64,000 nt of DNA from positions 1-64,000 of IMG/VR virus record IMGVR_UViG_3300032038_000062; one strand, 5' to 3'. Of the stretch, positions 8,101 through 61,836 are shown one piece after another. Origin of the DNA: a virus. Within the stretch, counting starts at the first letter, position 1. Each line of letters starts with the position of its first letter. The position numbers were made by a program, and so were the translations under genes. The notes under the pieces were generated by a model. That model was not told the DNA's origin and made no database searches. It was given only the letters and a program-made list of their open reading frames with translations.

Positions 8101-8263
8101 TTATGTATTTTTAGACTTCTAAAGTCTAAGGACAAAAAATTATTTTGAAAAAGTAGTTGACTTTTTTATAACTCTATGATATAATATAGATACAGTCAAG
8201 GGAGATAGAAACCGACTGAATATAAAATTTGGGTGGCGACCGTCGCTAAAGGAGTTTTTATAA

Positions 8264-18666: not shown

Positions 18667-18860
18667 TTTCTTTTGCTTCTCCTTTCACTATATTACAAGA
18701 AAATTAAGTAGGCAATTATTGAAAAAATAATTTATAATTCTATTAATATTCTCCTTTTCCTTCTCTCTCCACCCTCTTACTCTCTTGGCGGCGGTACGCT
18801 TTTTTATTAGGAACTACTTGAGTTGTGGGTTTACGATACCAATAACCCCTTTTTCTCCTA

Positions 18861-21646: not shown

Positions 21647-22852
21647 TTAAATACAAGTTTTTAGAGCCTTATAATATTTATTGCTCTTATACTCCATATC
21701 GTTTGCGATGATGTTACGGTCATCAGTAGACAAGCCCTTCAAGAGAGAGATATTAAGAACAGTCTTAATATCCATAGTACCTTCGAGCTTAGCAATGCGC
21801 TCAATCGCACGATAGGTTGCAAGGTGATGGATATGTGCCTTTTGTACTGCCTTACGGAAATCGTGGATAAAGGTAATCAACTCGTTGTTGCCATTTGCAA
21901 CAGCTTCCTCAATCTTAGGAGAATAGTCAATCTCCATCAAGGCATACCGGTCAAGAGAAGCGGCGTCAAGCTGATAACGACCGGTATACTCAATATCGGC
22001 GCCAGTACCGTAAGTGTTACCCGCAGCGATTACTCGGAAATCTTCGTGCGCAGTAACCTGACCAGTAGGAAAGTCAAAGTAACCGTTTGCGATTGCCGCA
22101 TTCAAGATAATAAGAACTTCGGGAATAGAACCGTCCATCTCGTCGAGGAAGAACAAGCCGCCATCTTTAAAAGCCTTATAAAAGGCAGTTTCGTGGTAAT
22201 GACCGTTAGCGTCGATAAAACCAGTCAACTTATACTCCTGAGTTACAGCGTTGGTAAAATAGAAGTTCAAACCTAAACCAGCGGCTACTTGCTGTGCAAG
22301 TACGTTCTTACCAGTGCCAGCGGGCCCCGCCAAGAAAACGGGAATTGCGGCAGAAACAAGAGTGAGTACGTCATCAAACTTCTCGTGGGTTACGCCAGTA
22401 ATCTTATTAATTGCATTGGGAGTAACAATTTCATGGCGCTGAGGAAGAAAACCAAACTCGTCAATGAGTCTTTTACGAACTACAGGGTAAACTTCCTTAA
22501 AGATAGACTCAGTAGAAGCCTCCGCAACAGTCTTGAAGAATAGCTCTTCCAACTTGCCACCAAGACCACTGCTTTCTCCACCGGCGGGCACAGTAACACC
22601 AGACATAGGAACTCCATCATAGTTATGACGCATCTTTTCAAGAGCCTTTTCCGCAGCGTTCTTATGGAAAGCCGCACGCTCAATTACAGGAGCGGGCAAA
22701 CCTTTTCTACCAGCTTCAATGCTGTTAAACTTATTACGAGGGTCGTAGTAGTGTCCCTGAAAAAGCAAGTAAAGATTCTTGCCGCCCTTTGCGAACTCCT
22801 CAGTATCAATTACATAGGTAATATTATCTTTTGCATAAACTACAGTAAACAT
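21647..22852 (-). CDS. MoxR / CbbQ / CobS-like AAA+ ATPase (AAA_5 type)
   Basis: Walker A LAGPAGTGKN, Walker B LFFLDEMD, sensor region. About 170-aa N-terminal extension of unknown function. Confidence 0.7.
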   Translation of the reverse strand: MFTVVYAKDNITYVIDTEEFAKGGKNLYLLFQGHYYDPRNKFNSIEAGRKGLPAPVIERAAFHKNAAEKALEKMRHNYDGVPMSGVTVPAGGESSGLGGKLEELFFKTVAEASTESIFKEVYPVVRKRLIDEFGFLPQRHEIVTPNAINKITGVTHEKFDDVLTLVSAAIPVFLAGPAGTGKNVLAQQVAAGLGLNFYFTNAVTQEYKLTGFIDANGHYHETAFYKAFKDGGLFFLDEMDGSIPEVLIILNAAIANGYFDFPTGQVTAHEDFRVIAAGNTYGTGADIEYTGRYQLDAASLDRYALMEIDYSPKIEEAVANGNNELITFIHDFRKAVQKAHIHHLATYRAIERIAKLEGTMDIKTVLNISLLKGLSTDDRNIIANDMEYKSNKYYKALKTCI

Positions 22853-26751: not shown

Positions 26752-28035
26752 TTACGGAAAGATTCCTGCATCTCTTCTGTATCCTCGCTTATATTCGTGG
26801 GGAAAGACAACTTCACCAATTCCATAGATATGATTCCTCCAAGAACTTACTATTAAAGCCACACTATATAATACTAAAGCAACGCAAAATACAACTTCAT
26901 AATTAAGTCCATTTTGTAATATAATTGCAGTAGTATTATTACCAGTTAATCCAGCAATAGCCCAAGCACTAAGCGCCAGTCCGTGGATTTCACTTACTTT
27001 TGAAAGTCCAAAATACTCTGTTAATAAGGCTGGTAATGTACTAAAACCGCCACCATAGCCAGCATTAACAACCAAAAGTAAAAGAACAATTATAAATGGT
27101 AGTATAGCTGAACTTCTAAATATAAGTGTAGAAATCAGCATAAAGATACAGCTAATAAAGATAATTTGATAAATTGTTTTTCTCGTTTTACAATGGTCAG
27201 ACAAGGTTGAGTAACCGATTCTGCCGCCAGCGTTAAATAAAGCAGTAATCATTGGAATTATAGCAGTCGCCGCAGCTAATCCAGTTAGATAAATATTGAT
27301 AATTTGTGTTTCATAGCTTATCAACATTAAACCACAATGGATATTAATAAAGAAGATAAGCCAAATTCTTCTAAAGTACCTATTCTTAAACATACTCAAA
27401 GAAAACTTTGGTATTTCTTTACTTTCAACCCAATCAATCGGTTTCTCTAATAAGAAATGACCGGTCATCATTATAATAAAATAAAAACCGCCTAAAATCA
27501 AGAACATTATCCAAATTCCAAACTGTGCGAGCAGCCAAGTCATAATGGGTGTGGCTATGGCTTTAGCTAAACCAAAACCAGCAATAGAAATGCCTGTTGC
27601 TAAACCCTTATTATCTTTAAACCATAGCATTAATGTTTTAACTGGTGAAAGATAACCTATTCCTAGTCCTATTCCCATTAATACACCATAGGATAAGTAA
27701 ATTCCTATAAGTGCTGGAATACCTTTTAATAATAGAATTGATAAACCAGTTCCTATCATACCACCGCTAAAGCATATTGCGGCGACAAGAGAAGATTTAT
27801 GAACATCTCTCTCAACATATCGTCCTCCAAAAGCCGCGGACATTCCCAAAAAGAAAATTGCTATTGAGAAAGCCCAGCCAACTGCAAATGGAGAAAGATT
27901 AACGTATTGCGCTATTTGGTCTTTAAAAGTAGACCAACAATATACTGTTCCTATTGAGCAGTGGATTAATAATGCTGGTATCGCGCCATTTAATATTTTA
28001 TTCCGTGTCATTATTCCTCCTTTATTCATATTCAT
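26752..28035 (-). CDS. MFS-type transporter (12 TM, OFA-like)
   Basis: 427-aa polytopic protein with MFS-like hydropathy periodicity. Confidence 0.65.
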   Translation of the reverse strand: MNMNKGGIMTRNKILNGAIPALLIHCSIGTVYCWSTFKDQIAQYVNLSPFAVGWAFSIAIFFLGMSAAFGGRYVERDVHKSSLVAAICFSGGMIGTGLSILLLKGIPALIGIYLSYGVLMGIGLGIGYLSPVKTLMLWFKDNKGLATGISIAGFGLAKAIATPIMTWLLAQFGIWIMFLILGGFYFIIMMTGHFLLEKPIDWVESKEIPKFSLSMFKNRYFRRIWLIFFINIHCGLMLISYETQIINIYLTGLAAATAIIPMITALFNAGGRIGYSTLSDHCKTRKTIYQIIFISCIFMLISTLIFRSSAILPFIIVLLLLVVNAGYGGGFSTLPALLTEYFGLSKVSEIHGLALSAWAIAGLTGNNTTAIILQNGLNYEVVFCVALVLYSVALIVSSWRNHIYGIGEVVFPHEYKRGYRRDAGIFP

Positions 28036-38873: not shown

Positions 38874-39587
38874 CTAGAGGTTTAATTCAATAACTAAATG
38901 GTAGAGAATTGTAACTTTATCAGTAAGGTCAAAACTATCGTGGTAATGACCAAAAAACCAATGTTTATATGTAATTTTGTCTTCGACTATATCTAAAAAC
39001 TGCTCCATAGACTTATCTATTTCATCTTGGTTGACACCAAAAAGAAATAACTCTTCCAATTCTCTCTCGAATTTAAGTGGAACTGTATGAGAGAAGATAT
39101 AATCAAATGAGTTCTCTTTTTCTAAGATTTCTAAAATTTTTTCCTTTTCTTCATTTGTCATTTGCTCACTTTCAAACCAACGACCAGCGCCACGATATAG
39201 ACGATAGTATTTATCTATACTGTATGCGCCGCCCAAACATAGACACTTTCTATCTTTAAGATAAAAGATACCATCCTCTGGGAAGATGATATTTGGTCTA
39301 TTTGGTTCTACCCAAGTATAACATTTTAATTCCTCATTATAAACACGTTTATAAGAAGGAATATTCCACGCTCTTTCTTCGTGGTTGCCGTGAGTGCCGA
39401 TAATAGTGATGGGCATTTTAGCGAGTTTATTTTTAACGTGAGCATCACGTTCATCAAGAAAATAATTTAAGCCAAGGTCGCCGCAAATTACAAGATAATC
39501 TTCCTTTGTCGTATTTTCTTGTTCACATAAAGTTTTAATTCTTGAAAGAGAACCGTGAATGTCACCCGTACAAAACGCTCTATTCAA
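38874..39587 (-). CDS. Calcineurin-like metallophosphoesterase (second copy, different family member)
   Basis: GDIHG, GDLG, GNHE motifs. Confidence 0.7.
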   Translation of the reverse strand: MNRAFCTGDIHGSLSRIKTLCEQENTTKEDYLVICGDLGLNYFLDERDAHVKNKLAKMPITIIGTHGNHEERAWNIPSYKRVYNEELKCYTWVEPNRPNIIFPEDGIFYLKDRKCLCLGGAYSIDKYYRLYRGAGRWFESEQMTNEEKEKILEILEKENSFDYIFSHTVPLKFERELEELFLFGVNQDEIDKSMEQFLDIVEDKITYKHWFFGHYHDSFDLTDKVTILYHLVIELNL

Positions 39588-39752
39588 CTTTATCCCACCT
39601 TATCTTACTGCCGCAACAATGGCAATATTTATCGAAGCGGAGAATTATTGTTCGACATTCTCCACAAGTCCAACAGCTTAACTTTTTAATCGGAATTGTA
39701 CCTCTAAGTATTCTCAAAAGTCTTCTCATATAATCCTCCTTCTTAAATAATA

Positions 39753-39826
39753 TGGCGGCGCCGCCCAGACTCGAACTGGGAAGGACAGAATCAAAATCTG
39801 TTATGTTACCATTACATCACGACGCT
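39753..39826 (-). tRNA. tRNA-Gln (anticodon TTG)
   Basis: Hand-folded cloverleaf; anticodon loop TTTTGAT; A1/C72 unpaired (Gln-like weak 1:72); CCA encoded. Confidence 0.55.
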
Positions 39827-39935
39827 ATATCTATGGACTTTCTGATAGATGGGCAACTTCAACGAGAGGTTTTCTATCTTTTTGGTATCCATTACGAGGG
39901 CTTATCCCAACCAACCTATCACGTGAGTAGGAAAT

Positions 39936-40028
39936 TGGCGACGCGGGTGAGACTCGAACTCACACACCACCGAAGTGATTACTCAGGGATTAGCAATCCC
40001 CTATCTTACCAATTAGGCTTACCGCGCC
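39936..40028 (-). tRNA. tRNA-Ser (anticodon GCT), type II
   Basis: Long variable arm, loop TTGCTAA, T-loop TTCGAGT, CCA encoded. Confidence 0.7.
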
Positions 40029-40198
40029 AAATCTTTATCTTTATAGATAATCATAGCAAAAAAGTTATATATATAATCCTCTCTTATTACAAACTTAATA
40101 TCTATAACTTCTTGCCTATCGCGCTCTAGTTTTTCAATTTCTCGGTTTATTTTGTCTTCAAGTGTAGTCGGTTTTTGTTCAATTAATATTTTTACTTT
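40019..40198 (-). CDS. Small hypothetical protein inside the tRNA array
   Basis: About 59 aa from MKVKIL with RBS GAGGTAA; preceded by a repeated 150-nt element. Confidence 0.3.
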   Translation of the reverse strand, partial: KVKILIEQKPTTLEDKINREIEKLERDRQEVIDIKFVIREDYIYNFFAMIIYKDKDLAR

Positions 40199-40366
40199 CA
40201 TGTTACCTCGCATTTATATAAAATGAAGTAGATAAGGATTTGCACCTTATATGTGCCTTAGTATCCTCCAAAAAAATCCCGTACATAACGTCTCGGTTTT
40301 AATTACAGTCTGTTACCCACAGCAACGCTTGCGTCTACCTATTCCGCCACTACTTCATATATCTAC

Positions 40367-40442
40367 TGGCACGCCTAGAGGGACTTGAACCCACAACCAG
40401 CTAGTTCGTAGCTAGCTACTCTTTCCATTGAGCTACAGGCGC
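40367..40442 (-). tRNA. tRNA-Arg (anticodon ACG)
   Basis: Anticodon stem GCTAG/CTAGC with loop CTACGAA; T-loop TTCAAGT. Confidence 0.7.
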
Positions 40443-41758
40443 ATATTAATCAGTCAAAGCAACAACAATAGCAGCCGCAACAGCCACAGAGAGAAACAAT
40501 CCTATTAAAATTCCTATAATAATAATGGGTATAAATATATTAACATAACCCAAAAATATTAAAATAGCAAAAAAGACGATAAAAATAAGGGAGATATATA
40601 CAATACTTTTGATTTGATTTCTTTTCATATAATCAATGATACGGTTAAATTTATTCTTCAATGCAGTATTCCTCTACAAAATAATGTATTCCACTCCTAT
40701 AAGCAATTGAATCAAGTTCTTCAATAGAAAGACCTTTTACTTTTTCTTCATCTATTGCCCAAACAGCAACAAGCGCATTCTCAGCCATTACTTCATCGAG
40801 CATCTCGTAAAATTTTTCCTCGTCTTCACTATCTTCTTCGCTAAGACAGTTGGTAGCTCTTTCTCCGAGAGAGGTCATAATATCATCGTAATCGTCCATA
40901 AGATTCATACATCTCTCAAAGCAGAAATCACAGGCGTCATTCATATCTTTAGCTTCGATAACGCCAGAGTCTTCAATGCCATGAAGACCTTGGTAGATAT
41001 TTTCTGTTGCATAGTAGTAAAATCTGCCCATACTATCCCTTCTTTCTTTTCTTCTTCTTTTGTCCTCCACGGAAAGAAATTTTGGTATCAAAACCGTGGT
41101 TAGTAATCTTATCATCATTAGTAAGTCCGATAGACTCTCTACGCTCAGCGGCGGTACGCTCTAAAGAAAAATATTCCTCTATTGCTAAATAGATGTCTAA
41201 GGGATTAATTAACTCAGCAAAGCCGCTTGCCTTTAAAAGAGGAATATCATAGATTATAGTACGCTCATTATTACGATAACCATACTCTACGCTTAAACTA
41301 TACTCCTTTGTATAATTACCCCTATTAATTGCATCAATAGCAATTTTATGCTTTCTATCTTCTGTCTTTGCTGACCAATGAGCAAACCAGTCATCGCCTT
41401 TTAACTTGATATAATTAAATGAAAGGAGTTTTCTATCGGTATTATAATTTGTCCAAGTTAAAACGAGATTAATAATATAATCTTTTACGTAGCCGTAGTC
41501 ATCTAAGTCAAGAACCTTAGCCTCAAACAACCAAAATCTATTACATACTTGGAGTAAAATATATGAAATTTGACCCAGTTTATTAATGCCGTAAGTAATA
41601 TAATTTAAACCTTTACAAACTTCGTCTTTAGTAAGAATAAAAGACCTAGTTCTATCGAAAGTTACTGTTTTATCGGGATAAACACCTTGTAAGTAATCAT
41701 AGAAGTCGTAATTCTTGTCTATAATCTTCACAATAGAACTCCTTTCTTCGATATTATT

Positions 41759-41835
41759 TGGAACCCCGACTCGGATTCAAACCGAGGACATACCGCTTAG
41801 AAGGCGGTTCTTCTGTTCAGGCTGAAGTACCGGGG
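41759..41835 (-). tRNA. tRNA-Arg (anticodon TCT)
   Basis: Anticodon loop CTTCTAA; T-loop TTTGAAT. Confidence 0.6.
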
Positions 41836-41844
41836 TATATAATG

Positions 41845-41918
41845 TGGACCACCAAGCGGGAGTTGAACCCGCGCCTTTTGGTTGGAAGCCAAATATTCTA
41901 CCGTTAAACTACTGATGG
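41845..41918 (-). tRNA. tRNA-Gly (anticodon TCC)
   Basis: Stem TTTGG/CCAAA with loop CTTCCAA; T-loop TTCAACT. Confidence 0.65.
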
Positions 41919-42211
41919 ATATTCCAGCTGTTAATAAACCGCTGGCGCTTCGAGCGGATTGCCTACGATAAAATCATTGAAAATTGTGTAGTAATCGCCT
42001 TCTGATACAAGCCACAGCTCTTCAAATTCAAGAGCATAAAGATTACCGATAATAGACTTTGCGCGAACCTTTAGACCATTGCCGTCCTCGACAAAAACCT
42101 CTTTATCACACTTTGCTGCAAGTGCGGTAATAGTTTCGGCTTCCTTTACTGTGTCCATATAGATTTTTGCTCTCATAAGAACCTCCTAAAAATTTTAATA
42201 CCCGAAAGGGC

Positions 42212-42294
42212 TGGTGGTAGTGACAGGATTCGAACCTGCACGCCGAAGCCATACCTTCTAAAAGTACGTTGTCTGCCAATTCCAGCACACTACC
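42212..42294 (-). tRNA. tRNA-Leu (anticodon TAG), type II
   Basis: Acceptor GGTAGTG/CACTACC, loop TTTAGAA, T-loop TTCGAAT. Confidence 0.55.
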
Positions 42295-42301
42295 TTATAT
42301 G

Positions 42302-42386
42302 TGGTGCCAATAATCGGACTTGAACCGATACGCCCGAAGGACAAGAGTGTTTGAGACTCCCGTGTCTGCCGTTCCACCATATTGGC
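42302..42386 (-). tRNA. tRNA-Leu (anticodon CAA), type II
   Basis: Loop CTCAAAC; T-loop TTCAAGT. Confidence 0.65.
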
Positions 42387-42544
42387 ATATTCAAGACACT
42401 TTTATATAACTTTCTCATTCCTTAAATAAGTGTTGTATAAATAAAGTTGCTGTAAGTGTCTTTTATTTCTCTCTTAACTTTCTATATATATTATAACAAA
42501 TATATTATAAAAAAGCAAATTAATATATTGATTTATAAATAAAA

Positions 42545-42616
42545 TGGTGGGAAATGGTGGATTCGAACCACCGCTACTGTCACAAACTAGCGTGCTACCA
42601 TTACACTAATCATCCC
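42545..42616 (-). tRNA. tRNA, possibly His (GTG); acceptor and anticodon stem imperfect
   Basis: T-arm GGTGGTTCGAATCCACC and CCA present; anticodon assignment tentative. Confidence 0.4.
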
Positions 42617-43061
42617 ATAATATACCAATAGTAGGACTACTGCCCTACTACTGGCTTTTAATTTATTCTGATTTATTTTCCGCAAAGCCGCCAGAAAGCA
42701 GCATTAACGGCAACAAATTATCTGTTGAACCCTCATTCTTATTCAAAAGCAAAAACATAAGTGGATTAATCTTATTTGAACCACCCATCGCCATCATCAG
42801 TGCCATCGTACTCATATCCAAACATTATCACTTGCTATGTCACCCTGTAAAATCATAGACATTGGCTCTTCCATCAAATTTCTCCTTTCTTTCTTCTTTT
42901 GGTGCACCACCTCGGTACTGCCCCGAGCATCCCCAAATTAAAAGTTTGGTGCCTTACTTCTTGGCTAGTGGTGCTAATTAAATTATCAAAGTACAAAACA
43001 CAAGTTCAGGGTTATAAATTAAAAGTTTATTCCTAAATTATAATTGCTGTATGTGTCTATG

Positions 43062-43135
43062 TGGTACGAAGGGAAAGAATTGAACTTTCATCTATCGCTT
43101 ATCAGACGATTGCCCTGCCATTGTGCTACCTTCGT
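43062..43135 (-). tRNA. tRNA-Ile (anticodon GAT)
   Basis: Loop CTGATAA; T-loop TTCAATT. Confidence 0.65.
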
Positions 43136-43409
43136 ATATGACTGGAATTTATCTCGTTAGTCCAGTGGCTCCGGCATCCCTACTTCTATCCCGCGTGAGC
43201 TAGCGGCAAGATTTACTTTGCGTCTTTATTAGTCGTTTTCCACTAAAGCCACATATCACTAACTTAAAGTTGAGTGCCGGTGGTAGTTTAATCTTGAAAT
43301 CCATGATAACGACCTCTGAGTGTTCCTGCGTAGCAACAGTTATCCTTTGAGAATGGGTGGTTGATAATCCGAAACCGCCAACGATTGAACGCGTTATGCT
43401 ACTAAGCGC

Positions 43410-43486
43410 TGGTACTCCATATTAGAATCGAACTAATGACCTCCTGTTTGTAGGACAGGCGCTCTAACCTGCTGAGCTAATAGAGT
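43410..43486 (-). tRNA. tRNA-Val (anticodon TAC)
   Basis: D-stem GCTC/GAGC; anticodon stem CCTGT/ACAGG with loop CCTACAA. Confidence 0.55.
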
Positions 43487-43764
43487 ATATGGTGACCGAG
43501 TGTGCAGTTAGTCGACTGGTGTAACCTCCCAGCGCTTCAATCACACGCATCCCCATTGGATTTCACAAACTTTTATACTAGGACTTCCGCGGCGAACTAC
43601 CTCGTTGAGTTGTTACTCAATGTGTTCCAATTAATTAGGGCTATATTTTCTTCTCGGCTTTTAATACTTGCCTATCGGTCAAATAGTAGTAATTGGTTTA
43701 GCCTATCGTTTATAGTGCCGTTGAGACCGATTGGACTACTACTAATCTCCTCTTGCACTTATTG

Positions 43765-43837
43765 CGACTCCAACGGGACTTGAACCCATGACCTCTAGCG
43801 TGACAGCTAGCGTTCTACTCTTCTGAACTATGAAGCC
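43765..43837 (-). tRNA. tRNA, probably Asp (GTC); CCA not encoded
   Basis: T-loop TTCAAGT; anticodon region CTAGC-TGTCAC-GCTAG has a 6-nt loop as read. Confidence 0.45.
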
Positions 43838-44051
43838 ATATCAGGGCTTTAAGGTCAGCCAACCGCACATTTGTTGATTGCTGGAATTTTTGCTTTTCCA
43901 ATCTCTTAATTGTAACTTCATTTATCGTTTCTAAAGTTTTCTTTCCTTAACTTTCTATATATATTATAACAAATATATATTAAAAAATCAATTTTTCTTT
44001 TCTTTTATCTTTTACGAATAATAGCTACTTAATTTTTCACCAGAAAATATT

Positions 44052-44127
44052 TGGTAGAAGCTAGGAGAATTGAACTCCTGACCTGTTGTTTGCAAGACAA
44101 CTGCTCTACCAGCTGAGCTAAGCCCTC
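44052..44127 (-). tRNA. tRNA-Ala (anticodon TGC)
   Basis: G3:U70 identity pair present; loop CTTGCAA. Confidence 0.65.
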
Positions 44128-44191
44128 AGATATTGGGTTATTGTTGCACTATCAACTACTTACAAGGTCCTCTTACCTAAGCCCATATTAA

Positions 44192-44267
44192 TTGGCACGG
44201 CTCAAGGGATTTGAACCCTTATCCGAGGTTTTGGAGACCCCTATTCTAGCCCATTGAACTATCGCCG
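44192..44267 (-). tRNA. tRNA-Trp (anticodon CCA), acceptor base imperfect
   Basis: Loop CTCCAAA; T-loop TTCAAAT. Confidence 0.5.
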
Positions 44268-44350
44268 CATATATTGGCAGTCATTTCCTACTGCCGTGAA
44301 GATTAAAGGATTCCATCTTCTATATTCATATTCCAGAATATACCCTTATA

Positions 44351-44425
44351 TGGCTCCAAGGGTGGGATTCGAACCCACAACCACTCGGTTAACAGCCGAA
44401 TGCACTACCATTGTGCTACCTTGGA
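44351..44425 (-). tRNA. tRNA-Asn (anticodon GTT)
   Basis: Loop CTGTTAA; T-loop TTCGAAT. Confidence 0.7.
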
Positions 44426-44618
44426 ATATATAACCGACAGTGGGGTGACACTCCCACATCTCCTTTAATCCTCCTTTAAAGGCGACAGCTGCCCGTTCCG
44501 TCCTTGTCGATTTATAATGGTTTTTCTATCTTAAAGATATAGCTATAAACAAGGTCACCATAAACTATTCTGTGCCTCCATATTCACTCTATAGCAAAGA
44601 AAAATATTTCAACGGCGC

Positions 44619-44703
44619 TGGTACTGATAACAGGACTTGAACCTGCACGCCAATAAGACAATAGAACCTTAATCTATCGCGTCTGCCAATTCCGCCATAT
44701 CAG
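44619..44703 (-). tRNA. tRNA-Leu, type II (anticodon reads AAG, unusual; TAA not excluded)
   Basis: Perfect 7-bp acceptor; loop TTAAGGT. Confidence 0.5.
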
Positions 44704-44729
44704 TATATAATCATGCTGCATATTAATAT

Positions 44730-44814
44730 TTGGTGGGCAGGGTTGGACTCGAACCAACGTATCGTTACCGAGAGAGGGTTACAGCCTCCTGCAATTGCCG
44801 CTATGCGACCTACC
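44730..44814 (-). tRNA. tRNA-Tyr (anticodon GTA), type II
   Basis: Loop CTGTAAC; T-loop TTCGAGT. Confidence 0.65.
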
Positions 44815-44823
44815 CATATAAAA

Positions 44824-44900
44824 TTGGTGCACCGTCAGGGACTTGAACCCTGAGCCTACTGATTATGAGTCAGTTGCTCTGACCAACTGAGCTAACGGTA
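44824..44900 (-). tRNA. tRNA-Met (anticodon CAT), elongator type
   Basis: G1:C72 paired; loop CTCATAA. Confidence 0.7.
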
Positions 44901-44906
44901 CAAACA

Positions 44907-44983
44907 ATGGTAACTCGTAGGAGATTCGAACTCCTGCTTTCAGATTGAGAATCTGATGTTGTAGCCAACTTAACTAACGAGCC
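44907..44983 (-). tRNA. tRNA-Glu (anticodon CTC)
   Basis: Stem TCAGA/TCTGA with loop TTCTCAA. Confidence 0.6.
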
Positions 44984-45057
44984 ATATTAATGTTAGAATC
45001 AACCACTTATCTAACTTTGATAGACCTCAGACATTGCTCCTTTCTATCTTACCCCTC

Positions 45058-45135
45058 TGGTGACACCACTGGGGATTGAACCCAGACTCTCCACCTTGAA
45101 AGGGTGGCGTGTTATACCGATTCCACTATGGTGCC
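45058..45135 (-). tRNA. tRNA-Glu (anticodon TTC)
   Basis: Stem CCACC/GGTGG with loop CTTTCAA. Confidence 0.7.
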
Positions 45136-45381
45136 ATATAAATTCCCTTTCGGGAAGATGACCGTAGGTAACTGTCTGGTTACTCCTTTCGACTAGATAC
45201 CAAGCTAGCCGCTACTTCACGACGTAGAACGATAAGTTATCCTATCCACTTATAGGGTAGTTATTCTTTTCGACAATAACCACTTAAACCCGCAGACCTT
45301 TATGGCGCTGAAAGTTCCTTTTCTTTTCTTAACTTTCTTTATATATATTATAATGTATTTATATAAAAAAGTCAAAAATTT

Positions 45382-45627
45382 TTAATCTAATTCCCACCAA
45401 TAATCGAAAGTTCGTCTATATGAACCACCATTAGGAATATCCTTTGTATGTCGAACCTTTCGATTACTCAAATTGCGGAGGTATTTTGCTCTTTTAGATT
45501 TATAAAATCTAACCCATCTATGTTTTTCTTCGTTATACCAAATGGTGCGATGTCCAGCTCTAGCAAAAGTTTGCCTTGCCCTCTTTATATCTCCCATTTT
45601 TCTACGGTGGCTCATAGTAACCTCCAA
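45382..45627 (-). CDS. Small basic (R/K-rich) hypothetical protein inside the tRNA array
   Basis: 81-aa ORF with RBS GGAGG; preceded by the repeated 150-nt element. Confidence 0.4.
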   Translation of the reverse strand: MEVTMSHRRKMGDIKRARQTFARAGHRTIWYNEEKHRWVRFYKSKRAKYLRNLSNRKVRHTKDIPNGGSYRRTFDYWWELD

Positions 45628-45800
45628 GGTTTATGAATTAGCATATATGATAAGGATTTGCACCTTATATGATAGTCTTTACCTCGGTGCGGGTCGCACG
45701 TGTCTTTAAACTCTTTTTTTAAGTGGTAGCGCTAATTCCACCCTGGCAACTATCTCCCGCTAGCGCGTCTACCTATTCCGCCACATATATACTATTTTAA

Positions 45801-45895
45801 TGGCGATGCCCCTCGGATTCGAACCGAGACGCCGCATCCCTACGACTACTAATGCTTTTCAAGAGCATTTCCTTACCAATTAGGATTAGGACACC
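45801..45895 (-). tRNA. tRNA-Ser (anticodon TGA), type II
   Basis: Stem ATGCT/AGCAT with loop CTTGAAA. Confidence 0.7.
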
Positions 45896-46358
45896 ATATA
45901 AGGAATAAGACTCATCTTATTCCTTAACCCATAGTCCGAAGACGTCTGGGGCAATTCAAAGAAAAAATCAGAAACGGTCTTGCCAAACCACTTCTTACAA
46001 AAAGTATAAATACTTTTTCAATCATAATATAAAAGGTTTTCTCATTTCGAAGATAACCTTAAACTCCGCTCTTTCGTTACTACCCAAGAGTGCGTCACAC
46101 AAAGGTGATAGGGAATCCGCCACGGATGCTATATTATTATAGGTTCCCGTTATTCTGTCCATCTCTTTAACCCACCGTGGAGGTTTACTAGTATTAACTA
46201 CGGGCGAATTAGTTTTCATATAACAACCAGTATTAGAAAACTATTATAAAAGACTATACTGACGTATTTTAGGGTGTTCCCCAAGGAATACAGTTTCCAA
46301 ATTGTACAGACTCTTGTTTAAACAGGTACACGACGTGAACATATCTGTACTGGTACCC

Positions 46359-46432
46359 TCGAAGTGGAGGGATTCGAACCCCCGATATCACGGTCCCAAA
46401 CCGCGCGCCTTACCAAACTAGACTACACCTCG
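46359..46432 (-). tRNA. tRNA-Pro (anticodon TGG); CCA not encoded
   Basis: C1:G72 (Pro-like); loop TTTGGGA; T-loop TTCGAAT. Confidence 0.55.
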
Positions 46433-47164
46433 ATATTTGGTGGTTGTATTTTTAAGTCTTCACCCACCGAAGTTCGGACTCACATAACTAAATACACAAT
46501 AATAAATACATAAATAATAAATACATAATCGTCCTACCCTAAGTATTCTAGGAAGACTCTATTTATCTTTACACTATTTCTAAACCAATACATATAATAC
46601 CTCAATTCTAAAAATAACTATAAATTAATTAACTAATGTTTATGAAATACCATATAATCGGCTCTCCTTTCTTTTTAGGGTACTTAATTTTACAACATAA
46701 TTTAATAAATGGACGATTATGTTGGGAGGCAACTTTCAATTGTCTACCTCTAAGTTTGAGTGTCTACCGCCACTACTTATTTTTTTCTATTAATTTTTAA
46801 CTTTAACTTTAATCGTGGCAGGATAACTGTTACTCCTCACGAGAACAACGATACTAAGCCGTTGACCTTGTCGCACCTGTATCGCCGGACGCCTTGCGCT
46901 TGCTTTCTCCCACTAAGCTGGGGATAATTACCACTCTAATTATCAAGAGACACAGTTTCACCCGCCTACTGTCAAGTCAGCGTTTAACGCACACTCTCAC
47001 GTCTAAACCTCCTCGGTGTTTAGACACCGCCTTTCATCGAATGGAAAGGTACACTAACTCTTCTATCGGGACGCAGTCCGACGCCCGCATTTATTTAACG
47101 ACACTGTCGATGTCACTAAACTCAGCGATTTCATATAATTTTTTCTAAATAATCCTGAGTTTAA

Positions 47165-47238
47165 TGGTTACAGGGATGGGACTTGAACCCATACCTCTAG
47201 CTTATGAGGCTAGTAAGCTCCCATTACTCTACCCTGTA
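47165..47238 (-). tRNA. tRNA (anticodon CAT), second copy; Ile2 (lysidine) or Met
   Basis: Stem CTAGC/GCTAG with loop CTCATAA. Confidence 0.65.
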
Positions 47239-47243
47239 ATATG

Positions 47244-47315
47244 GAGATTTCGCGCGGACTTGAACCGCGACTTCTGGTTTTGCAGACCAGCGCCTTACCA
47301 GTTTGGCTACGAAAT
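47244..47315 (-). tRNA. tRNA-Cys (anticodon GCA)
   Basis: Stem CTGGT/ACCAG with loop CTGCAAA. Confidence 0.7.
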
Positions 47316-47403
47316 CATTTCTTTTCTCTTAACTTTCTATATATATTATATTATAATTATATAAAAAAGTCAAAATAGATTTTATTGCTTTTACTGTTAA
47401 GAG

Positions 47404-47480
47404 GCTAGAAAGATGGAGCAAGTAGCCGGATTCGAACCGACGTCCCCAGTATGGCGCACTAGAATTCTAAACAAACTAAA
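47404..47480 (-). tRNA. tRNA with non-canonical anticodon loop (GCGCCAT); identity undetermined
   Basis: Good acceptor and T-arm (GTCGG TTCGAAT CCGGC) and CCA; anticodon loop lacks U33. Confidence 0.45.
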
Positions 47481-47483
47481 CTA

Positions 47484-47558
47484 TACCTGCATATGGAGCC
47501 GAATCACCGTTATGCTCGGAGGTCAAGAGGTTACAAATCTCCCGTTTTACTGATTAAA
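47484..47558 (-). tRNA. tRNA-like, possibly Thr (TGT), with non-canonical T-loop
   Basis: Perfect acceptor GCCGAAT/ATTCGGC plus CCA; D-stem GTTT/AAAC; loop TTTGTAA. Confidence 0.4.
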
Positions 47559-48411
47559 CTAATTCGGCATATTAAGTACTAAGTATTGTTCCTTTCTTCA
47601 TCTGTATATTCATAAAAAAGGAAGTAAAAGAAACAACTTTCCTTATTTACTTATTAATTTAGCTATCTTATTATTATACAAGACGCGGATAGCTAAATAC
47701 AAATAAACAAATACTCAATGTAACTTTTATCTTCCACGAGAACCTCTCATTCTCACATTATTCCAATAAAATATTTTTAATAAATAATAAATTGCTGATT
47801 GCGTCTTATTATAGAATATTTCGGTGATATTAAGTGGGACTTTAAGAGTTAAGGTATAAAATTTTAATGCAAGACACCTTCCAGTGTTGGATTTGAACCA
47901 ACTAATCTTTTTTTGCTAAAAAGACGAATTAACCATTATCTTCGGAATAAAATTGCTGTACGTGTCTTATTAAGATTATATATTAACTTTGCAGTCGCCG
48001 CAACTCACGTTTCAATGCTTTTATGATTCTCGCATTAGCTGTCGCATCACGCGATTCGAGCTTTTTAATTCGATTTTCATAGTAAAGTTTTGTACGCATT
48101 TAATCACCTTTCATTTAATACTCGACACCTTTTGCAAATAAGCAGGCAGTTTATTGATGGAGCCTAATCATTTTATAGCGTTGCTGCAAGTGTCTTTTTG
48201 GGGAACCAATAGATTATACTAGGCTAAAATTTTCAAAGTTAAAAAGTGCATATGATAATTAACTTCTTTGCGCTACGCTTTTAGTAACGGTTTACATCGC
48301 CGCTTCTAGCCTCTTATAGCTAGCTATAAGTTTACGAAAAGTATAATCAGCTTTGAGGTCAGCCAACCGCACATCTTTATCCTGTACTCATAGTCGAATT
48401 TTGCTAAGACT

Positions 48412-48500
48412 TGGTACCGGTCACCAGACTCGAACTGGTACGCCTATTAACTAGGCTACGGATTTTAAGTCCGCTATGTCTTCCATTCCATCACACCGGC
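48412..48500 (-). tRNA. tRNA-Leu (anticodon TAA), type II
   Basis: Loop CTTAAAA; T-loop TTCGAGT. Confidence 0.6.
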
Positions 48501-48771
48501 ATTTATATTAAGGATTCGAGCGCTTTACTAAGAAGAAAGTCGCGCGGCTTTTGATAACGCAGAGCCGCCAAACTGCTAGCAAAGAGAATTTATCTTAAAA
48601 AAGTTATTACCCCGTTAGCGCCGAGAGGGCGGTCTTTTTAATGAAAGGAGTGACAGATAGAAACCGATTGCCGCCCTCTCGTTCAACGAATTAACTTTAA
48701 ATCTCTTAACTTTCTATATATATTATAGCAAAATTATTTATTTTTTGCAAATTTTTTATTGCTATATTATC

Positions 48772-48918
48772 TTAACGGTCAATGTCTGTATAGAAAAATG
48801 CTTGATAATCTGTACCTACTTCCTTATAAAAATTCTCAGCATCTTCTAAGTAGTTTTCATCGAAAAACTCCTCTAATTCTTCGGGGCTAAAACCTAAATC
48901 AAAATCATCAAAGAACAT
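48772..48918 (-). CDS. Small acidic hypothetical protein
   Basis: Start MFFDDFDLGF directly after the conserved promoter plus leader at 48925-48985. Confidence 0.4.
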   Translation of the reverse strand: MFFDDFDLGFSPEELEEFFDENYLEDAENFYKEVGTDYQAFFYTDIDR

Positions 48919-48985
48919 TTTTATACCGCCTTTCTTAACTTTTCTATATATATTATATATGGTTTTTATAAAAAAATCAAAAAAA

Positions 48986-49405
48986 TTATACCCATTGATA
49001 TTGCGGCAACTGCTCATTAAACAATTTATATCTAAGCCAATCATCTAAAAAAATTGCTAATAAAGATATAAAAAACCATAGCACCGTAAATGGTAGACAT
49101 ATTTGTCCTAAAATATTAAATGGCATATTAGAATAATCCCAAACGTGTAAGTTTAATAGTAAATTTAAAATAATGCCTGAAATAAACTCAATTATTGTAA
49201 TAATAACTGCGCTTGCCGCCATTTGGTATAATAAAGGTATTTTTTTAAACTGTGGAATTTCATTAATCAATCCCACTAAAACAAAACATAGTCCTCCGAC
49301 AATCCCCATAGTCCAGTGTGTCCTACTTCTAAATAAAATTTCTAAAAGGCAATATAAGCTGCCTCCTACTATAAAAAGGAATAGATACTTACTCACTTTT
49401 TTCAT
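48986..49405 (-). CDS. Membrane protein (4 TM), function unknown
   Basis: 139 aa, hydrophobic. Confidence 0.5.
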   Translation of the reverse strand: MKKVSKYLFLFIVGGSLYCLLEILFRSRTHWTMGIVGGLCFVLVGLINEIPQFKKIPLLYQMAASAVIITIIEFISGIILNLLLNLHVWDYSNMPFNILGQICLPFTVLWFFISLLAIFLDDWLRYKLFNEQLPQYQWV

Positions 49406-50156
49406 TGCTATTATCCTCTATTTGTGAATATAAGTCTTTTAATGGCTGTGATTGATATTCTTCTGGAATTTCAATTCCATATTCAATCGCTGCAATTTCT
49501 TCAATCGTTTCCAGTGAATTAACATATTCTCTTAAAGAATTAAAATATGTTACATGAAACATTTTATGGAATATACTAGCTGTAACAACTTTCATCATAT
49601 CAGCCGCAGTATAATAAGTACATAGTTCGCCATCGGCGTGGTAGGACACATATTCTGCTCCAAGATTAATCTGCGCCTGACGCTCCATTAAATTAATTTG
49701 GTCTTCCTTTGCGAGAGAATAATGGCGAGTTATTCCATCTGTTAAAGTTACATCTACTCCAGCTTCAATTACTTGATTACAAGTTTTGTCTAATTCTTTA
49801 ATTTTGTATTCTTTTATAAAATCAATCTCTTCATCTGATGGTGGTTCATCGTCAATAGGCTCATCACTCTCTTCTTCTGAACGTTCGTCAAGAGCTTTCC
49901 GTAATGCATCATATTCAATTTTATCTATTTCTTCATAAGTCACAGTAACGAAACCCAAGTAGCTAGGGAATAGTGGTCGTCCCTCTAATTGCCAAATAGT
50001 AGTATTATTATAAGATAAAATACCCATAATATAAGGCGAATTATAGTCACAATAATTAACCATATTAGATTTACTATTCCAAGTAACAAACAAAATATTT
50101 TCTAAAGCATCTACTACTTGTCCTTCTGTATTTAATACTTTTATATATCTAGTCAT
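49389..50156 (-). CDS. Hypothetical acidic protein
   Basis: 255-aa ORF. Confidence 0.5.
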   Translation of the reverse strand: MTRYIKVLNTEGQVVDALENILFVTWNSKSNMVNYCDYNSPYIMGILSYNNTTIWQLEGRPLFPSYLGFVTVTYEEIDKIEYDALRKALDERSEEESDEPIDDEPPSDEEIDFIKEYKIKELDKTCNQVIEAGVDVTLTDGITRHYSLAKEDQINLMERQAQINLGAEYVSYHADGELCTYYTAADMMKVVTASIFHKMFHVTYFNSLREYVNSLETIEEIAAIEYGIEIPEEYQSQPLKDLYSQIEDNSNEKSE

Positions 50157-60363: not shown

Positions 60364-61836
60364 TTACGCCAGAGTAACTGGCGCATATCTTTCAGACATT
60401 AACACATCTTCCATAAGTTCGATAGCAGTCTTATCAATAGAATTAATAAGTTGCTTAAAAGTAGAAGTTGCATGACCGCCAACAAGAAGAACATTCTTAT
60501 CTTTTGTCAAGAAAGTATCATTTCTACTATCAACATTCCAGAAGATTAGCTTAGGCAACTTATAACCCTTACTTTCGTAGAGCTTTTCCATTGCCGCCAC
60601 AAAATCGGTGCTGCCGCAATTATCAATCTCCATATCAGAAACGACTACAACTGCCTTTGGCATTTCTTCTGTGGATACGCCCTCTTCAATAGCTAAGCCT
60701 AAAATCTGTCTAAATACAGATTCTAAGTTAGTATTCATACCCCAATCTGCTCTTGCTACTCCTTGAAGAATAGACAAAAGAGAAGACTCTTCGGGAATTT
60801 TATGAAATCTAGGGCTAGAAGAGAAATTCATAAACAAGTTATGATATGCTCCCTTATTTCTTTGTGCAAAATAAACGGCAAGACCAAGAGCACTAGAAAT
60901 AGGCAATCTATCACAGTCAAACATCGAACCAGAAGTATCCGCAACCACAATGACATTTGATTCTGTGCCATTGAGATAATCAGGGAGCGCCTTCCACTGA
61001 GCCTCAATTACATCATCTATCATTGAGTTAATACCATAGCCGCGAATATAAGAACGGACTAAATCATAGGGATAAAGAACATCCGCCTTAATAGTTTGCT
61101 CTCCACTCTTAACCTTATTCATAAAGTCGGAAAATGCTTCTGACTTCAACTTAAAAGCATTACGATATTTCTTCATCGCATAACTGGGAACAGACTGGAA
61201 ATCAATGTCATTCCACTCTCTTGCACTCATCTTCTTCTCGACAATTTTTAAGTGAGCGCGCAACTTAGAGAGAAGTTTACGATATTCTTGTTCAGAAATA
61301 TCCCAAGCCTTACAAATTTTCTTCGCTAAGGCGCGAGTTGCTTTTGAAGAAGTATTAATAGAAGGAAGCCACTTAGCTAAAAGAGAAATGTGCGCTTTCT
61401 CTTTAAGCATACCTAGAATTAAGTTATCAGAAATGATAACTTTTCTAAGATATTCAAGTACCCCATTCTCTAAACTTGTACCAAAAAGTACATAAAGAGA
61501 ATCCCAGCGGTTATACTCTTCCACAAGGTGGAAATTCTTTCTAACAACTTCAGGATGGTTTTCTGCCAGCCATTTTAAAACCACCTTAAAAGTTCTTCTT
61601 TCTCCTAAACCACCTCTGATATCACCGCAATAAAAGGCGCACTTAGTAGCAAGTAATGGATTTTCATTAAAAGCCGCGGCAAACTTTTCAGCAATCTCAT
61701 GCTCTTGACGTGAGCGTAATGCACCACAAGTTGAGAAAAAATCTAACATAGCGCTATCAGTCGTATTATATGCTAAAGCGCCATTTTCAGTTAAAGTTTC
61801 TGTACTCTTTGTTGAAAATGCTTCTGCAAAATTCAT
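60364..61836 (-). CDS. vWA-domain protein (TROVE / DUF2828-like N-terminal region plus C-terminal von Willebrand A domain)
   Basis: MIDAS motif DTSGSM in VIVVADTSGSMFD followed by a Rossmann-like pattern; N-terminal about 280 aa alpha-helical. Confidence 0.6.
   Translation of the reverse strand: MNFAEAFSTKSTETLTENGALAYNTTDSAMLDFFSTCGALRSRQEHEIAEKFAAAFNENPLLATKCAFYCGDIRGGLGERRTFKVVLKWLAENHPEVVRKNFHLVEEYNRWDSLYVLFGTSLENGVLEYLRKVIISDNLILGMLKEKAHISLLAKWLPSINTSSKATRALAKKICKAWDISEQEYRKLLSKLRAHLKIVEKKMSAREWNDIDFQSVPSYAMKKYRNAFKLKSEAFSDFMNKVKSGEQTIKADVLYPYDLVRSYIRGYGINSMIDDVIEAQWKALPDYLNGTESNVIVVADTSGSMFDCDRLPISSALGLAVYFAQRNKGAYHNLFMNFSSSPRFHKIPEESSLLSILQGVARADWGMNTNLESVFRQILGLAIEEGVSTEEMPKAVVVVSDMEIDNCGSTDFVAAMEKLYESKGYKLPKLIFWNVDSRNDTFLTKDKNVLLVGGHATSTFKQLINSIDKTAIELMEDVLMSERYAPVTLA

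Follow-up and report, generated by a model that had tools for sequence, protein, structure and literature searches.

An RNA-gene island in a phage tRNA array: structured RNA families outside Rfam 15, including a tRNA-like element with unrelated cores

In a 64,000-nucleotide stretch of viral DNA (IMG/VR record IMGVR_UViG_3300032038_000062, positions 1 to 64,000; hereafter the window), the tRNA genes are all encoded by the minus strand, within 39.7-48.5 kb, 24 of them called by ARAGORN and two more added by Rfam. We find that this region is an RNA-gene island and not a set of tRNA operons with empty spacers. It contains a skipping-rope RNA, two copies of a tRNA-like element that we call c, further elements termed Y, X and i1, non-canonical tRNAs, short conserved boxes and small open reading frames (ORFs). 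As judged by sequence comparison, c, X, Y and i1 each represent a family that recurs, with compensatory base changes, in tens to hundreds of further phage contigs, and none of them is in Rfam 15. Taken as a whole, the data are in our view probably best explained by an RNA-gene island in which c is a processed tRNA-like scaffold carrying an effector core. The loci compared are given L-numbers, of which L001 is a divergent IMG/VR contig and L012, L019, L020 and L024 are metagenomic relatives that cover the array. The principal elements in the window are listed below, with lengths in nucleotides (nt) or amino acids (aa).

45643-45790, minus strand: element c2, 148 nt, closed by the stem ATATATG/CATATAT, following tRNA-Ser(tga) at a distance of 10 nt and preceding an 81-aa ORF.
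40225-40356, minus strand: element c1, 132 nt, closed by the stem GAAGTAG/CTACTTC, following tRNA-Arg(acg) at a distance of 10 nt and preceding a 64-aa ORF.
43207-43313, minus strand: motif Y, 107 nt, pseudoknotted, with helices P1 (GUCGUU/AACGAC), P2 (CAAGAU/AUCUUG) and P3 (ACUACCAC/GUGG..UAGU) and a variable hairpin P4.
43493-43682, minus strand: motif X, about 190 nt, with several helices closed by P1 (UUGACCGA/UCGGUCA), directly 5' of tRNA-Val.
44134-44185, minus strand: motif i1, 52 nt, GGCUUNGGUAAGAGGACCNUNUAAGUAGUUGAUAGUGNAACAAUAACC, with a variable closing stem, in the 65-nt spacer between tRNA-Trp and tRNA-Ala.

A first-pass annotation made from the sequence of the window had singled out six spacers (42620-43060, 43140-43400, 43490-43760, 44430-44615, 45140-45300 and 46440-47160) as lacking any minus-strand ORF of 60 aa or more. 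None is present, the longest minus-strand ORFs in these spacers being 52, 34, 30 and 36 aa. Its suggestion that structured non-coding RNAs are embedded there proved right, given the skipping-rope RNA and the conserved families c, X, Y and i1. The known RNAs that it offered as candidates did not appear: searches with Rfam 15 gave no tmRNA, RNase P RNA, 6S RNA or group I/II intron in the spacers at the gathering threshold, and neither these nor ROOL, GOLLD, YrlA or any ribozyme at E ≤ 5 on 39000-49500 or E ≤ 10 on 46430-47170. ARAGORN likewise called no tmRNA in the window. Rfam 15 scans of the window, of the 720-nt spacer (Z, below) alone and of 24 loci of the new families left c, X, Y, i1 and Z uncovered; across the scans of window, relatives and new-family loci, the families seen were tRNA, skipping-rope, ROOL, tmRNA and DUF3800-XI. 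The Rfam scan proposed in the first-pass annotation thus returned skipping-rope above threshold and nothing for c, X, Y and i1. To read an empty scan as a refutation, as had been suggested, would have misled, since the principal elements belong to genuine families with no entry in Rfam 15.

The two copies of element c have exactly matching termini of 20 nt (40331-40350 and 45765-45784) and 23 nt (40231-40253 and 45649-45671) around cores of 80 nt (c1) and 96 nt (c2) whose sequences are unrelated, which bears out the shared ends and unrelated cores first described. What had been overlooked is that each copy is closed by a perfect 7-bp stem which differs between the copies. Inside this stem the order is U8-G9, a D-arm GCG-GAAUAGGUAGA-CGC, the core, CAU, and a T-arm AUAAGG-UGCAAAU-CCUUAU. 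The acceptor-like stem is that of a canonical tRNA, with 7 bp formed from the 5' and 3' ends. The D-arm segment U-G-GCG-GAAUAGGUAGA-CGC, in which U8, G18 and G19 are present as in a tRNA, is nearly invariant and differs from the window tRNA-Leu(aag) at two positions. The initial idea of a tRNA mimic is therefore sustained, by the 7-bp acceptor-like stem, class-II D-arm and T-arm and by covariation in 83 distinct sequences.

The pattern GGTAGACGC-N(70-100)-AGGTGCAAATCCT recovered element c from at least 119 IMG/VR contigs and from 69 bacterial species genomes, mostly of Bacillota (Paenibacillus, Bacillus, Weissella, Leuconostoc, Levilactobacillus, Clostridia and Erysipelotrichaceae) with a few metagenome-assembled genomes (MAGs) of other phyla. 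It is also present, unannotated, in intergenic DNA of two cultured phages of lactic acid bacteria, namely Leuconostoc phage Ln-9, where it follows an HNH gene at the genome end, and Lactiplantibacillus phage H1-Guo, where a DUF1492 regulator and the terminase module flank it. Most members belong to small temperate phages or prophages. In roughly one third of the loci there are tRNAs no more than 4 kb away, the others being typically at late-region boundaries of temperate phages, and the element is co-oriented with its flanking long ORFs (65/73 upstream, 48/61 downstream). No protein neighbour is universally conserved; those seen include HNH, MazG, a putative late-regulator-like ORF with no Pfam match and a putative terminase-like ORF. 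Among the matches listed, element length is 97-149 nt (median 131) and 158 distinct cores fall into 115 blastn clusters; members reached through the 5' block alone have cores down to about 45 nt. T-loop-like hairpins are enriched in the cores (20 against 3.1 expected). None of 15 members tested matched Rfam. We note that four T7-like Synechococcus phages in INPHARED (KC310802, positions 4103-4129; KC310806; MH540083; MW015080) carry unannotated 27-nt matches, 96% identical, to the 5' block of c; either related tRNA-like elements or tRNA-Leu genes that escaped annotation may account for them.

Covariation was examined in an ends-only alignment of the 83 distinct members against 500 shuffles and controls with slid partners. 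Paired cells amount to 92.2%, compared with 71.5% in shuffles, and the covariation score is 0.569, compared with 0.154 for shuffled alignments (reached in 0/500) and 0.07-0.15 for slid controls. Stem pairs 1-7 are paired in 86-99% of sequences and use all four Watson-Crick types, whereas the eighth and ninth positions fall to 63 and 42%, from which we conclude that the stem is held at 7 bp, the length of a tRNA acceptor stem. The T-stem has 6 bp, three of which covary. The loop UGCAAAU with G55 recurs in members reached through the 5' block alone (L001, L244), so that G55 is not an artefact of a pattern that required the loop.

These results bear directly on the proposal that the spacers are non-functional, consisting of decayed tRNA genes and scars left by endonucleases or cassettes, with c a tRNA-Leu pseudogene holding a junk insert. 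The array is indeed a mosaic, ORFs of PDDEXK_5 and GIY-YIG type lie between tRNAs in relatives, Z includes a degenerate GTGGCGGTAGACAC stretch, locus L244 has a truncated 5' half of a c element, and neither Z nor the leader V (both described below) gives a strong structural signal. Decay would not, however, preserve the acceptor-like and T stems by compensatory changes in 83 distinct sequences from many hosts with the stem fixed at 7 bp, and a pseudogene would not retain a G55 T-loop and the CAU junction in hundreds of unrelated phages. The cores, moreover, are 97-99% conserved while their flanks diverge, and the helices of Y, X and i1 covary. We regard this proposal as very improbable.

The behaviour of the cores is best seen among the relatives of the window. 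Megablast found no relative among GenBank/INPHARED phages, and sensitive blastn gave tRNA matches only. A 232-aa ORF inside the array (41033-41731) was therefore used as an anchor, which led to L001 (62% protein identity) and to a graded series of metagenomic relatives. A membrane protein (PF06541) encoded upstream of the array, tried as a second anchor, belongs to a large bacterial family and was of no use. Compared with its relatives the array is a mosaic in which blocks of 90-97% identity are broken by replaced cassettes. In L020, L021 and L023 the c2 core is kept at 99.3% identity and occupies the c1 locus, with flanks of 84% identity; conversely, L024 and L266 carry the c1 core, 97.5% identical, at their c2 locus. 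At least three further unrelated cores occur at the c1 and c2 loci (L012, L016/L017 and L018). ROOL RNA (RF03087), of which the window has none, is present in L001, L012 and L024 at 326-339 bits. In L012, positions 8072-8909 (ROOL at 8067-8647, a tRNA and a 104-aa ORF) stand in for the 154 nt of window 42974-42820, and the ROOL of L024 is at the same site. Cassettes are exchanged between near-identical phages. ORFs resembling PD-(D/E)XK_5 and GIY-YIG homing endonucleases lie between tRNAs in L012 (5559-6038 and 7493-7930), L019 (4723-5352), L018 (613-1386), L020 and L024, and the window has no endonuclease ORF at those places; such ORFs are likely to drive the mosaicism.

In the mechanism that we propose, c would be co-transcribed with the upstream tRNA, the 10-nt gap being the spacing found between tRNAs in the array, and would be excised by RNase P at its 5' end and by 3' tRNA-processing enzymes. 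The tRNA-like frame would serve as a scaffold for processing and stability, and the hypervariable 45-100 nt core, with its subfamily-specific fold, would be the effector. With modest confidence, we suggest that this effector most probably serves to bind proteins, as a decoy or adaptor, and is under diversifying selection in the conflict between phage and host. The core is read as the functional part because its length is kept, because its folds are specific to subfamilies, because it moves horizontally intact, and because it is replaced wholesale among near-identical phages; such behaviour typifies determinants that diversify under conflict.

The main rival to a decoy or adaptor is punctuation that acts in cis only, in which c would be a tRNA-like RNase P/RNase Z site parting tRNAs from downstream mRNAs, much as tRNAs punctuate mitochondrial transcripts, X, Y and i1 would be leader or spacer structures guiding the maturation of tRNAs, and the cores would have no function of their own. 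The positions of the elements are compatible with this: both window copies of c are flanked by a tRNA and by a small ORF that has a Shine-Dalgarno sequence, c in temperate phages lies between a late regulator (DUF1492) and small ORFs and terminase genes, and Y often begins a few nucleotides past a tRNA 3' end. A cleavage signal, however, needs no core of 45-100 nt, yet the cores are maintained, fold in subfamily-specific ways and move horizontally intact. In a predicted core pseudoknot, comparison of c2 with L087, the sole distant member of its subfamily, shows two compensatory pairs (GCGGG/CCCGC and GACGG/CCGUC), as identified by eye in two lineages. In other phages X and Y are 5 kb apart and lie beside ORFs instead of tRNAs. 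We consider punctuation alone an unlikely explanation.

A possible protein partner for the decoy or adaptor is encoded in the same window.

60364-61836, minus strand: Ro60-like ORF, 490 aa, matching Pfam DUF2828 and DUF7788 and, weakly, VWA_2.

The AlphaFold model of this protein has a predicted local distance difference test (pLDDT) value of 86 and a predicted TM-score (pTM) of 0.85. The top seven Foldseek matches in the PDB are all Ro60/TROVE structures (E values of 1e-6 to 3e-4, TM-scores of 0.49-0.58 with the entire length aligned, more than 500 aligned columns, 14% identity), among them a phage Ro60, that of Thermus phage phiLo (9l5y). On the basis of the model, the protein is assigned the TROVE ring and von Willebrand factor A (vWA) fold and thereby membership of this group. 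It has more than 8000 metagenomic homologues. A MoxR-like AAA_5 ATPase, of a class that often forms pairs with vWA proteins, is encoded at 21647-22852 on the minus strand of the window.

Bacterial and phage Ro60 proteins bind Y RNAs (YrlA, Yrn1) that have tRNA-like modules with D and T arms (PMC4201824), which makes the array RNAs candidate partners of the Ro60-like protein; in this phage, by analogy with the tRNA-like Y RNAs, c could act through it. YrlA and Yrn1 resemble c in being modular, with a tRNA-like D/T module and a second module, and in M. smegmatis YrlA is a substrate of RNase P, acquires CCA and possesses an acceptor-like stem of 7 bp (PMC4201824). A stronger form of the idea is that c or other array RNAs are analogues of Y RNAs which tether the Ro60-like protein to partners set by the variable core. 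It gains from the Ro60/TROVE and vWA fold of the 490-aa ORF, from the tRNA-like arms of YrlA and Yrn1, from the existence of a phage Ro60 structure and from Ro60-like genes within 10 kb of arrays at six loci (L229, L257, L272, L107, L244 and L082). The order of parts, however, is different: YrlA is permuted, with the T arm, a closed acceptor stem-loop and the D arm, its RNA ends forming the Ro-binding stem, whereas c has the tRNA-like order of D arm, core, T arm and an open acceptor stem. The Rfam YrlA model found no match at E ≤ 5. Y RNA genes adjoin rsr, whereas the Ro60-like gene of the window is 15-20 kb from c1 and c2, the stretch surveyed next to Ro60 genes in the work on Y RNAs being about 400 bp (PMC4201824), and the fetched flanks of most c-family hosts hold no Ro60-like gene. 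We therefore find it quite unlikely that c or another array RNA is such an analogue. The 5' block of c, GGCGGAAUAG (40331-40350 and 45765-45784), does resemble the YrlA-conserved motif GNCGAAN0-1G with a one-base insertion (PMC4201824), which may be a coincidence, since the block is also the D-arm of tRNA-Leu.

Several observations weigh against a processed tRNA-like scaffold with an effector core. Element c departs from the tRNA T-arm in having a 6-bp stem instead of 5 bp and G in place of U55 (loop UGCAAAU), has no anticodon arm, with a heterogeneous 45-100 nt core in its place, and does not encode CCA. Neither ARAGORN, even at relaxed thresholds, nor the Rfam tRNA model calls it a tRNA. Cleavage of c by RNase P and its stability are predictions from shape, with a 7-bp acceptor stem stacked on the T-arm and the D/T elbow as the grounds for excision. 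The pattern searches demanded exact conserved blocks, so that block conservation is in part imposed by the search. Single-sequence minimum free energy (MFE) z-scores are unremarkable (-0.8 for c1, c2 and X alike, and +1.1 for the spacer holding Y); since most such scores are not significant, our support is taken from comparison and not from thermodynamics. Within the window the cores have antisense matches of at most 11 nt, the level of chance. A Ro60-like gene occurs in the fetched flanks of 0/69 genomic c loci and, among the matches listed, 2/119 viral c loci; being so rarely near c-family members, Ro60 is not a general partner of the family. Finally, c, Y, X and i1 may already be listed under anonymous identifiers in un-named catalogues of phage RNAs, such as that of 2023 with 10,006 candidates. 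Apart from these catalogues, the searchable literature gave no paper with the conserved c sequence or such a family.

Motif Y was recognized when nhmmer joined window positions 43318-43207 with three unrelated IMG/VR loci. Its block pattern is found in 45 IMG/VR contigs, mostly phage contigs of 60-400 kb. An alignment of 31 distinct sequences gives P1 as (G)CGUU/AACG(C) together with an invariant P3 and a variable P4, and P2 pairs the 6-9 nt after GGAUUU with the nucleotides after AAGUAA. Because P1 and P2 cross, Y is a pseudoknot. Paired cells make up 96.5%, and the covariation score is 0.448, compared with 0.121 for shuffled alignments (0/500) and 0.04-0.11 for slid controls. Double changes occur in all six pairs of P2, and the lone long-range pair changes from U-A to C-G. 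Y commonly starts just past a tRNA 3' end, at a distance of 4 to about 90 nt. ROOL-like sequence was present in 30 of the loci fetched at that stage. In one clade (L214, 2340-3153; L216, L224, L237, L240, L249 and L250) Y directly precedes ROOL, and in L229 ROOL is 258 nt downstream of Y; the two may be functionally paired. On 39000-49500 Y has no Rfam match at E ≤ 5.

These features raise the question of whether Y, i1 or both are self-cleaving ribozymes that process tRNA or ROOL precursors. Theta ribozymes, which are small HDV-like pseudoknotted RNAs flanking tRNAs in gut phages, provide a precedent (PMC10879173), and the nested P1/P2 pseudoknot of Y, its many invariant unpaired nucleotides, its frequent contact with a tRNA 3' end and its place before ROOL in one clade are all in keeping with such a role. 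The folds nevertheless differ. Theta ribozymes are minimal HDV-like folds, whereas Y, found like them beside tRNAs, is 107-170 nt with an 8-bp P3 around a variable hairpin; it has neither the 3-bp P3/L3 nor the post-P1 P4 of the HDV-like fold, and there is no helix between the 3' strands of P1 and P2. No Rfam ribozyme family matched at E ≤ 5, and the distance from tRNA to Y is not fixed. Self-cleavage thus appears rather improbable to us.

Motif X together with the adjoining tRNA-Val is 95.6-98.8% identical to L001, compared with 71% (DNA) and 62% (protein) for the anchor gene, and X of L001 holds a 133-nt hairpin insertion. Its two-block pattern occurs in 11 IMG/VR contigs, from which RNAalifold gives the closing P1 and four inner helices with 29 pairs, 21 of them having compensatory changes. 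X had no match in Rfam, and neither X nor Y had one in GenBank/INPHARED phages. A 17-mer from X was also tried as a homologue probe in IMG/VR and rejected, 9/10 matches being due to chance. Between X and tRNA-Asp there is a further conserved element.

43691-43763, minus strand: hairpin element, 73 nt, AGUAGUAGU...ACUACU, with the structure taken from an MFE fold.

This hairpin is 98.8% identical in L001 and 96.9% identical in L012 and is absent from L020. Motif i1, traced by nhmmer and then by pattern, is found in 30 IMG/VR contigs with an almost invariant core and a covarying closing stem; outside GG/CC, the two pairs can form in 25/29 and 26/29 sequences, each as four pair types. It has no Rfam match at E ≤ 5 on 39000-49500. 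The many invariant unpaired nucleotides and the pseudoknots suggest that Y, X and i1 may bind ligands or proteins or be catalytic.

The alternative that the spacers encode small proteins on either strand can be considered here. There are indeed ORFs of 30-93 aa, among them one of 93 aa (43502-43783) and one of 84 aa (46894-47148), both on the plus strand. All real genes in this region are nevertheless on the minus strand, the stems show compensatory substitutions, and homologues are set apart by indels of 1 nt and by sizeable hairpin insertions (the 133 nt in X of L001 and the variable P4 of Y). The conserved small ORFs (81, 64 and 65 aa) are outside the RNA elements. We judge a coding role for the spacers to be extremely unlikely.

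The remaining RNA genes of the island are as follows.

44432-44512, minus strand: skipping-rope RNA (RF02924), 56.5 bits against a gathering threshold of 36.7, E = 8e-11, covering model positions 1-80 of 80, 6 nt upstream of tRNA-Asn.
42899-42974, minus strand: cryptic, non-canonical tRNA-Lys(UUU)-like gene with acceptor GCACCAC/GUGGUGC, anticodon loop CUUUUAA, T-loop GGCAGUA and an encoded ACCA.
42548-42615, minus strand: His-like tRNA, added by the Rfam 15 scan at 41.3 bits and outside the default ARAGORN list.
47494-47568, minus strand: tRNA-Thr(tgt) with an odd T-arm, added by the Rfam 15 scan (as 47497-47568) at 41.7 bits and called by ARAGORN at a relaxed threshold only.
47878-47952, minus strand: tRNA-Ala(agc)-like, a weak ARAGORN call at a relaxed threshold only.

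Skipping-rope is the sole non-tRNA family of Rfam 15 above its curated threshold in the window and lies in a spacer (44430-44615) in which it had at first been missed. It is also present in the relatives L012, L019 and L024, with relatives scoring 51-61 bits. The family has been described with a 3' Rho-independent terminator (PMC5737381), in place of which the window copy has tRNA-Asn 6 nt on. A terminator scan found no minus-strand terminator-like site in 44351-44432 and flagged nearby only a plus-strand hairpin, at 44440-44457, inside the RNA itself.

The tRNA-Lys(UUU)-like gene, in the spacer 42620-43060, had also been missed. Its MFE structure is a cloverleaf with an ensemble frequency of 0.48, and nhmmer aligns it with tRNA regions of L033, L257, L244 and L255. 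Its D-loop has no GG, G18-G19 being absent, and with the T-loop GGCAGUA both elbow partners are altered. Neither Rfam nor ARAGORN, even at relaxed thresholds, calls it; the reason for this is the lack of G18-G19 together with the T-loop GGCAGUA. It could perhaps be a variant that escapes host nucleases which target tRNAs. As non-canonical phage tRNAs escape tRNA finders, inventories of phage tRNA genes are incomplete. A second irregularity, the four-base anticodon in the ARAGORN call 'tRNA-??? (gtca)' at 43764-43837 on the minus strand, is an artefact. The loop is an ordinary 7-nt CUGUCAC, which with 78% identity to the tRNA-Asp(gtc) of L001 identifies the gene as tRNA-Asp.

The region had been described in terms of tRNA operons. 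A reading as one or two operons does not survive the finding of a 68-nt repeat, not noticed before, that combines a sigma-70-like promoter with a leader and splits the region.

45319-45386, 42464-42531, 43937-44004, 47319-47386, 48696-48763 and 48926-48993, minus strand: six copies of the promoter-leader repeat, from a repeat search and a promoter scan.
43044-43058, 42447-42461, 47953-47967 and 48181-48195, minus strand: box (a), AGACACNUACAGCAA, from the repeat search.
43846-43870 and 48350-48374, minus strand: box (b), AUGUGCGGUUGGCUGACCUUAAAGC, from the repeat search.

The promoter-leader repeat (family D1) has TTGACT or TTGATT, 17 nt and TATAAT on the minus strand, followed by the leader ATATATAGAAAGTTAAGR. 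Its six copies divide the region into at least six transcription units, and the same promoter and leader occur in the unrelated IMG/VR phages L219, L252 and L230. Box (a), reported earlier as the plus-strand repeat TTGCTGTANGTGTCT, has copies that start at 42447, 43044, 47953 and 48181, of which the one at 48181 has a single mismatch; these four matches compare with 0.01 expected. Three of the four copies are 8-35 nt downstream of a -10-like hexamer, as read from the sequence, and the box occurs at matching places in relatives and in L001, L033, L228 and L242. Box (b) is likewise real (two matches, with 0 expected), with the correction that the position first noted, 43853, was a few bases off. 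It is kept in L230, L159 and L238 and recurs in unrelated phages.

Three spacer segments remain.

46434-47164, minus strand: the 720-nt spacer Z, with a GC-rich module at about 46800-47150 and an AT-rich lower half that is almost invariant among relatives.
45136-45318, minus strand: leader V, promoter-proximal, upstream of tRNA-Glu(ttc).
42620-42898, minus strand: small-ORF segment with a 52-aa ORF (42663-42821), the site of the ROOL cassette in L012 and L024.

Spacer Z had been put forward as the foremost candidate and turned out to be the least well supported of all those examined. Its reported richness in GC holds for the upper-coordinate half (0.45, 46800-47199) and not for the lower half (0.30, 46400-46799). 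The spacer as a whole folds with a z-score of -4.0 and its GC-rich part, which is probably structured, with one of -1.8; 13/185 predicted pairs are compensatory. Indels of 1 nt among relatives make a coding function unlikely. Z is kept only in the close relatives L019, L020, L012 and L266; beyond close relatives no homologue was found in IMG/VR, and in JGI metagenomes its first block matched nothing and its second block only L266. For want of wider homologues we regard Z as lineage-restricted and weakly supported. Leader V is 91-94% identical in relatives, equal to its flanks, has a fold z-score of -1.2 and is without independent structural support.

Some further observations concern the relatives and the rest of the window. 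L001 has a tmRNA (18419-18729, tag ADYSAYKMAA) and, at 19228-19298, a tRNA with anticodon CTA, called 'Pyl' by ARAGORN and of amber-suppressor type, which may indicate stop-codon recoding in that phage. DUF3800-XI RNA (RF02975), another exchangeable cassette, is found in the close relative L019 (3922-3969) and in an unrelated phage (L220, 2683-2718), and not in the window. The contig CACYJD010000002 (L157, the contig of L013) is a close relative binned in a rumen MAG of an uncultured member of the Erysipelotrichaceae; this binning is a weak indication of the host. A Major Facilitator Superfamily transporter, unusual as phage cargo, is encoded at 26752-28035 on the minus strand of the window.

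Phage tRNA islands are already known to harbour structured RNAs with no assigned function, as T4 RNAC and RNAD, GOLLD, ROOL, skipping-rope and theta ribozymes demonstrate. T4 RNAC and RNAD are about 120-140 nt and are matured with tRNAs; to our knowledge, the T4 RNAs are not known as a family with a conserved frame and hypervariable core, nor from temperate Bacillota phages. Compared by description only, they and the array RNAs are alike in originating from a phage tRNA cluster, the T4 RNAs being small and stable with no known biological role (PMC3014915). ROOL and GOLLD are also phage or prophage RNAs near tRNA islands, with function unknown (PMC5737381, PMC12286853), but are ornate, cage-forming molecules of 580-800 nt, whereas the array elements are 50-190 nt and unrelated to them in sequence. 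The tRNA-like domain of tmRNA and viral tRNA-like structures share with c the mimicry of acceptor and T-arm and a non-tRNA insert between the halves; unlike tmRNA, c has no tag ORF, no G3:U70 and no encoded CCA, and its D-arm is canonical class II. The architecture of c is that of a laboratory device, the 'tRNA scaffold' engineered by Ponchon and Dardel in 2007, in which an arbitrary RNA replaces the anticodon arm and is reportedly processed correctly and resistant to nucleases. We know of no natural tRNA scaffold with interchangeable inserts described so far. What appears to be new here are the families c, Y, X and i1, and above all the design of c, a conserved tRNA frame with interchangeable unrelated inserts.

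These results indicate that phage tRNA islands are denser in conserved RNAs than annotation shows, a stretch of 6 kb holding at least four families that are outside Rfam 15 and unannotated in the GenBank records examined. The c family is directly testable, since it is widespread, occurs in cultured dairy and gut phages, has RNase P cleavage predicted at its 7-bp stem and carries an exchangeable hypervariable module. The exchange of cores among near-identical phages resembles a signature of conflict. We put forward tentatively that c is a natural tRNA-scaffold platform, in which phages of Bacillota may use one frame derived from tRNA-Leu to express, process and stabilize a large repertoire of unrelated RNA effectors that are rapidly exchanged, either decoys or aptamers against host defence or tRNA-targeting proteins or, where a phage encodes Ro60, Y-RNA-like adaptors, and that Y, X and i1 are further undescribed functional RNA classes of large gut and rumen phages, possibly acting with ROOL. 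If the cores are effectors, this would be a new viral way to diversify functional RNAs and a natural precedent for a laboratory RNA-expression tool. If the platform does exist, it would be the RNA counterpart of the variable accessory protein genes in anti-defence islands.

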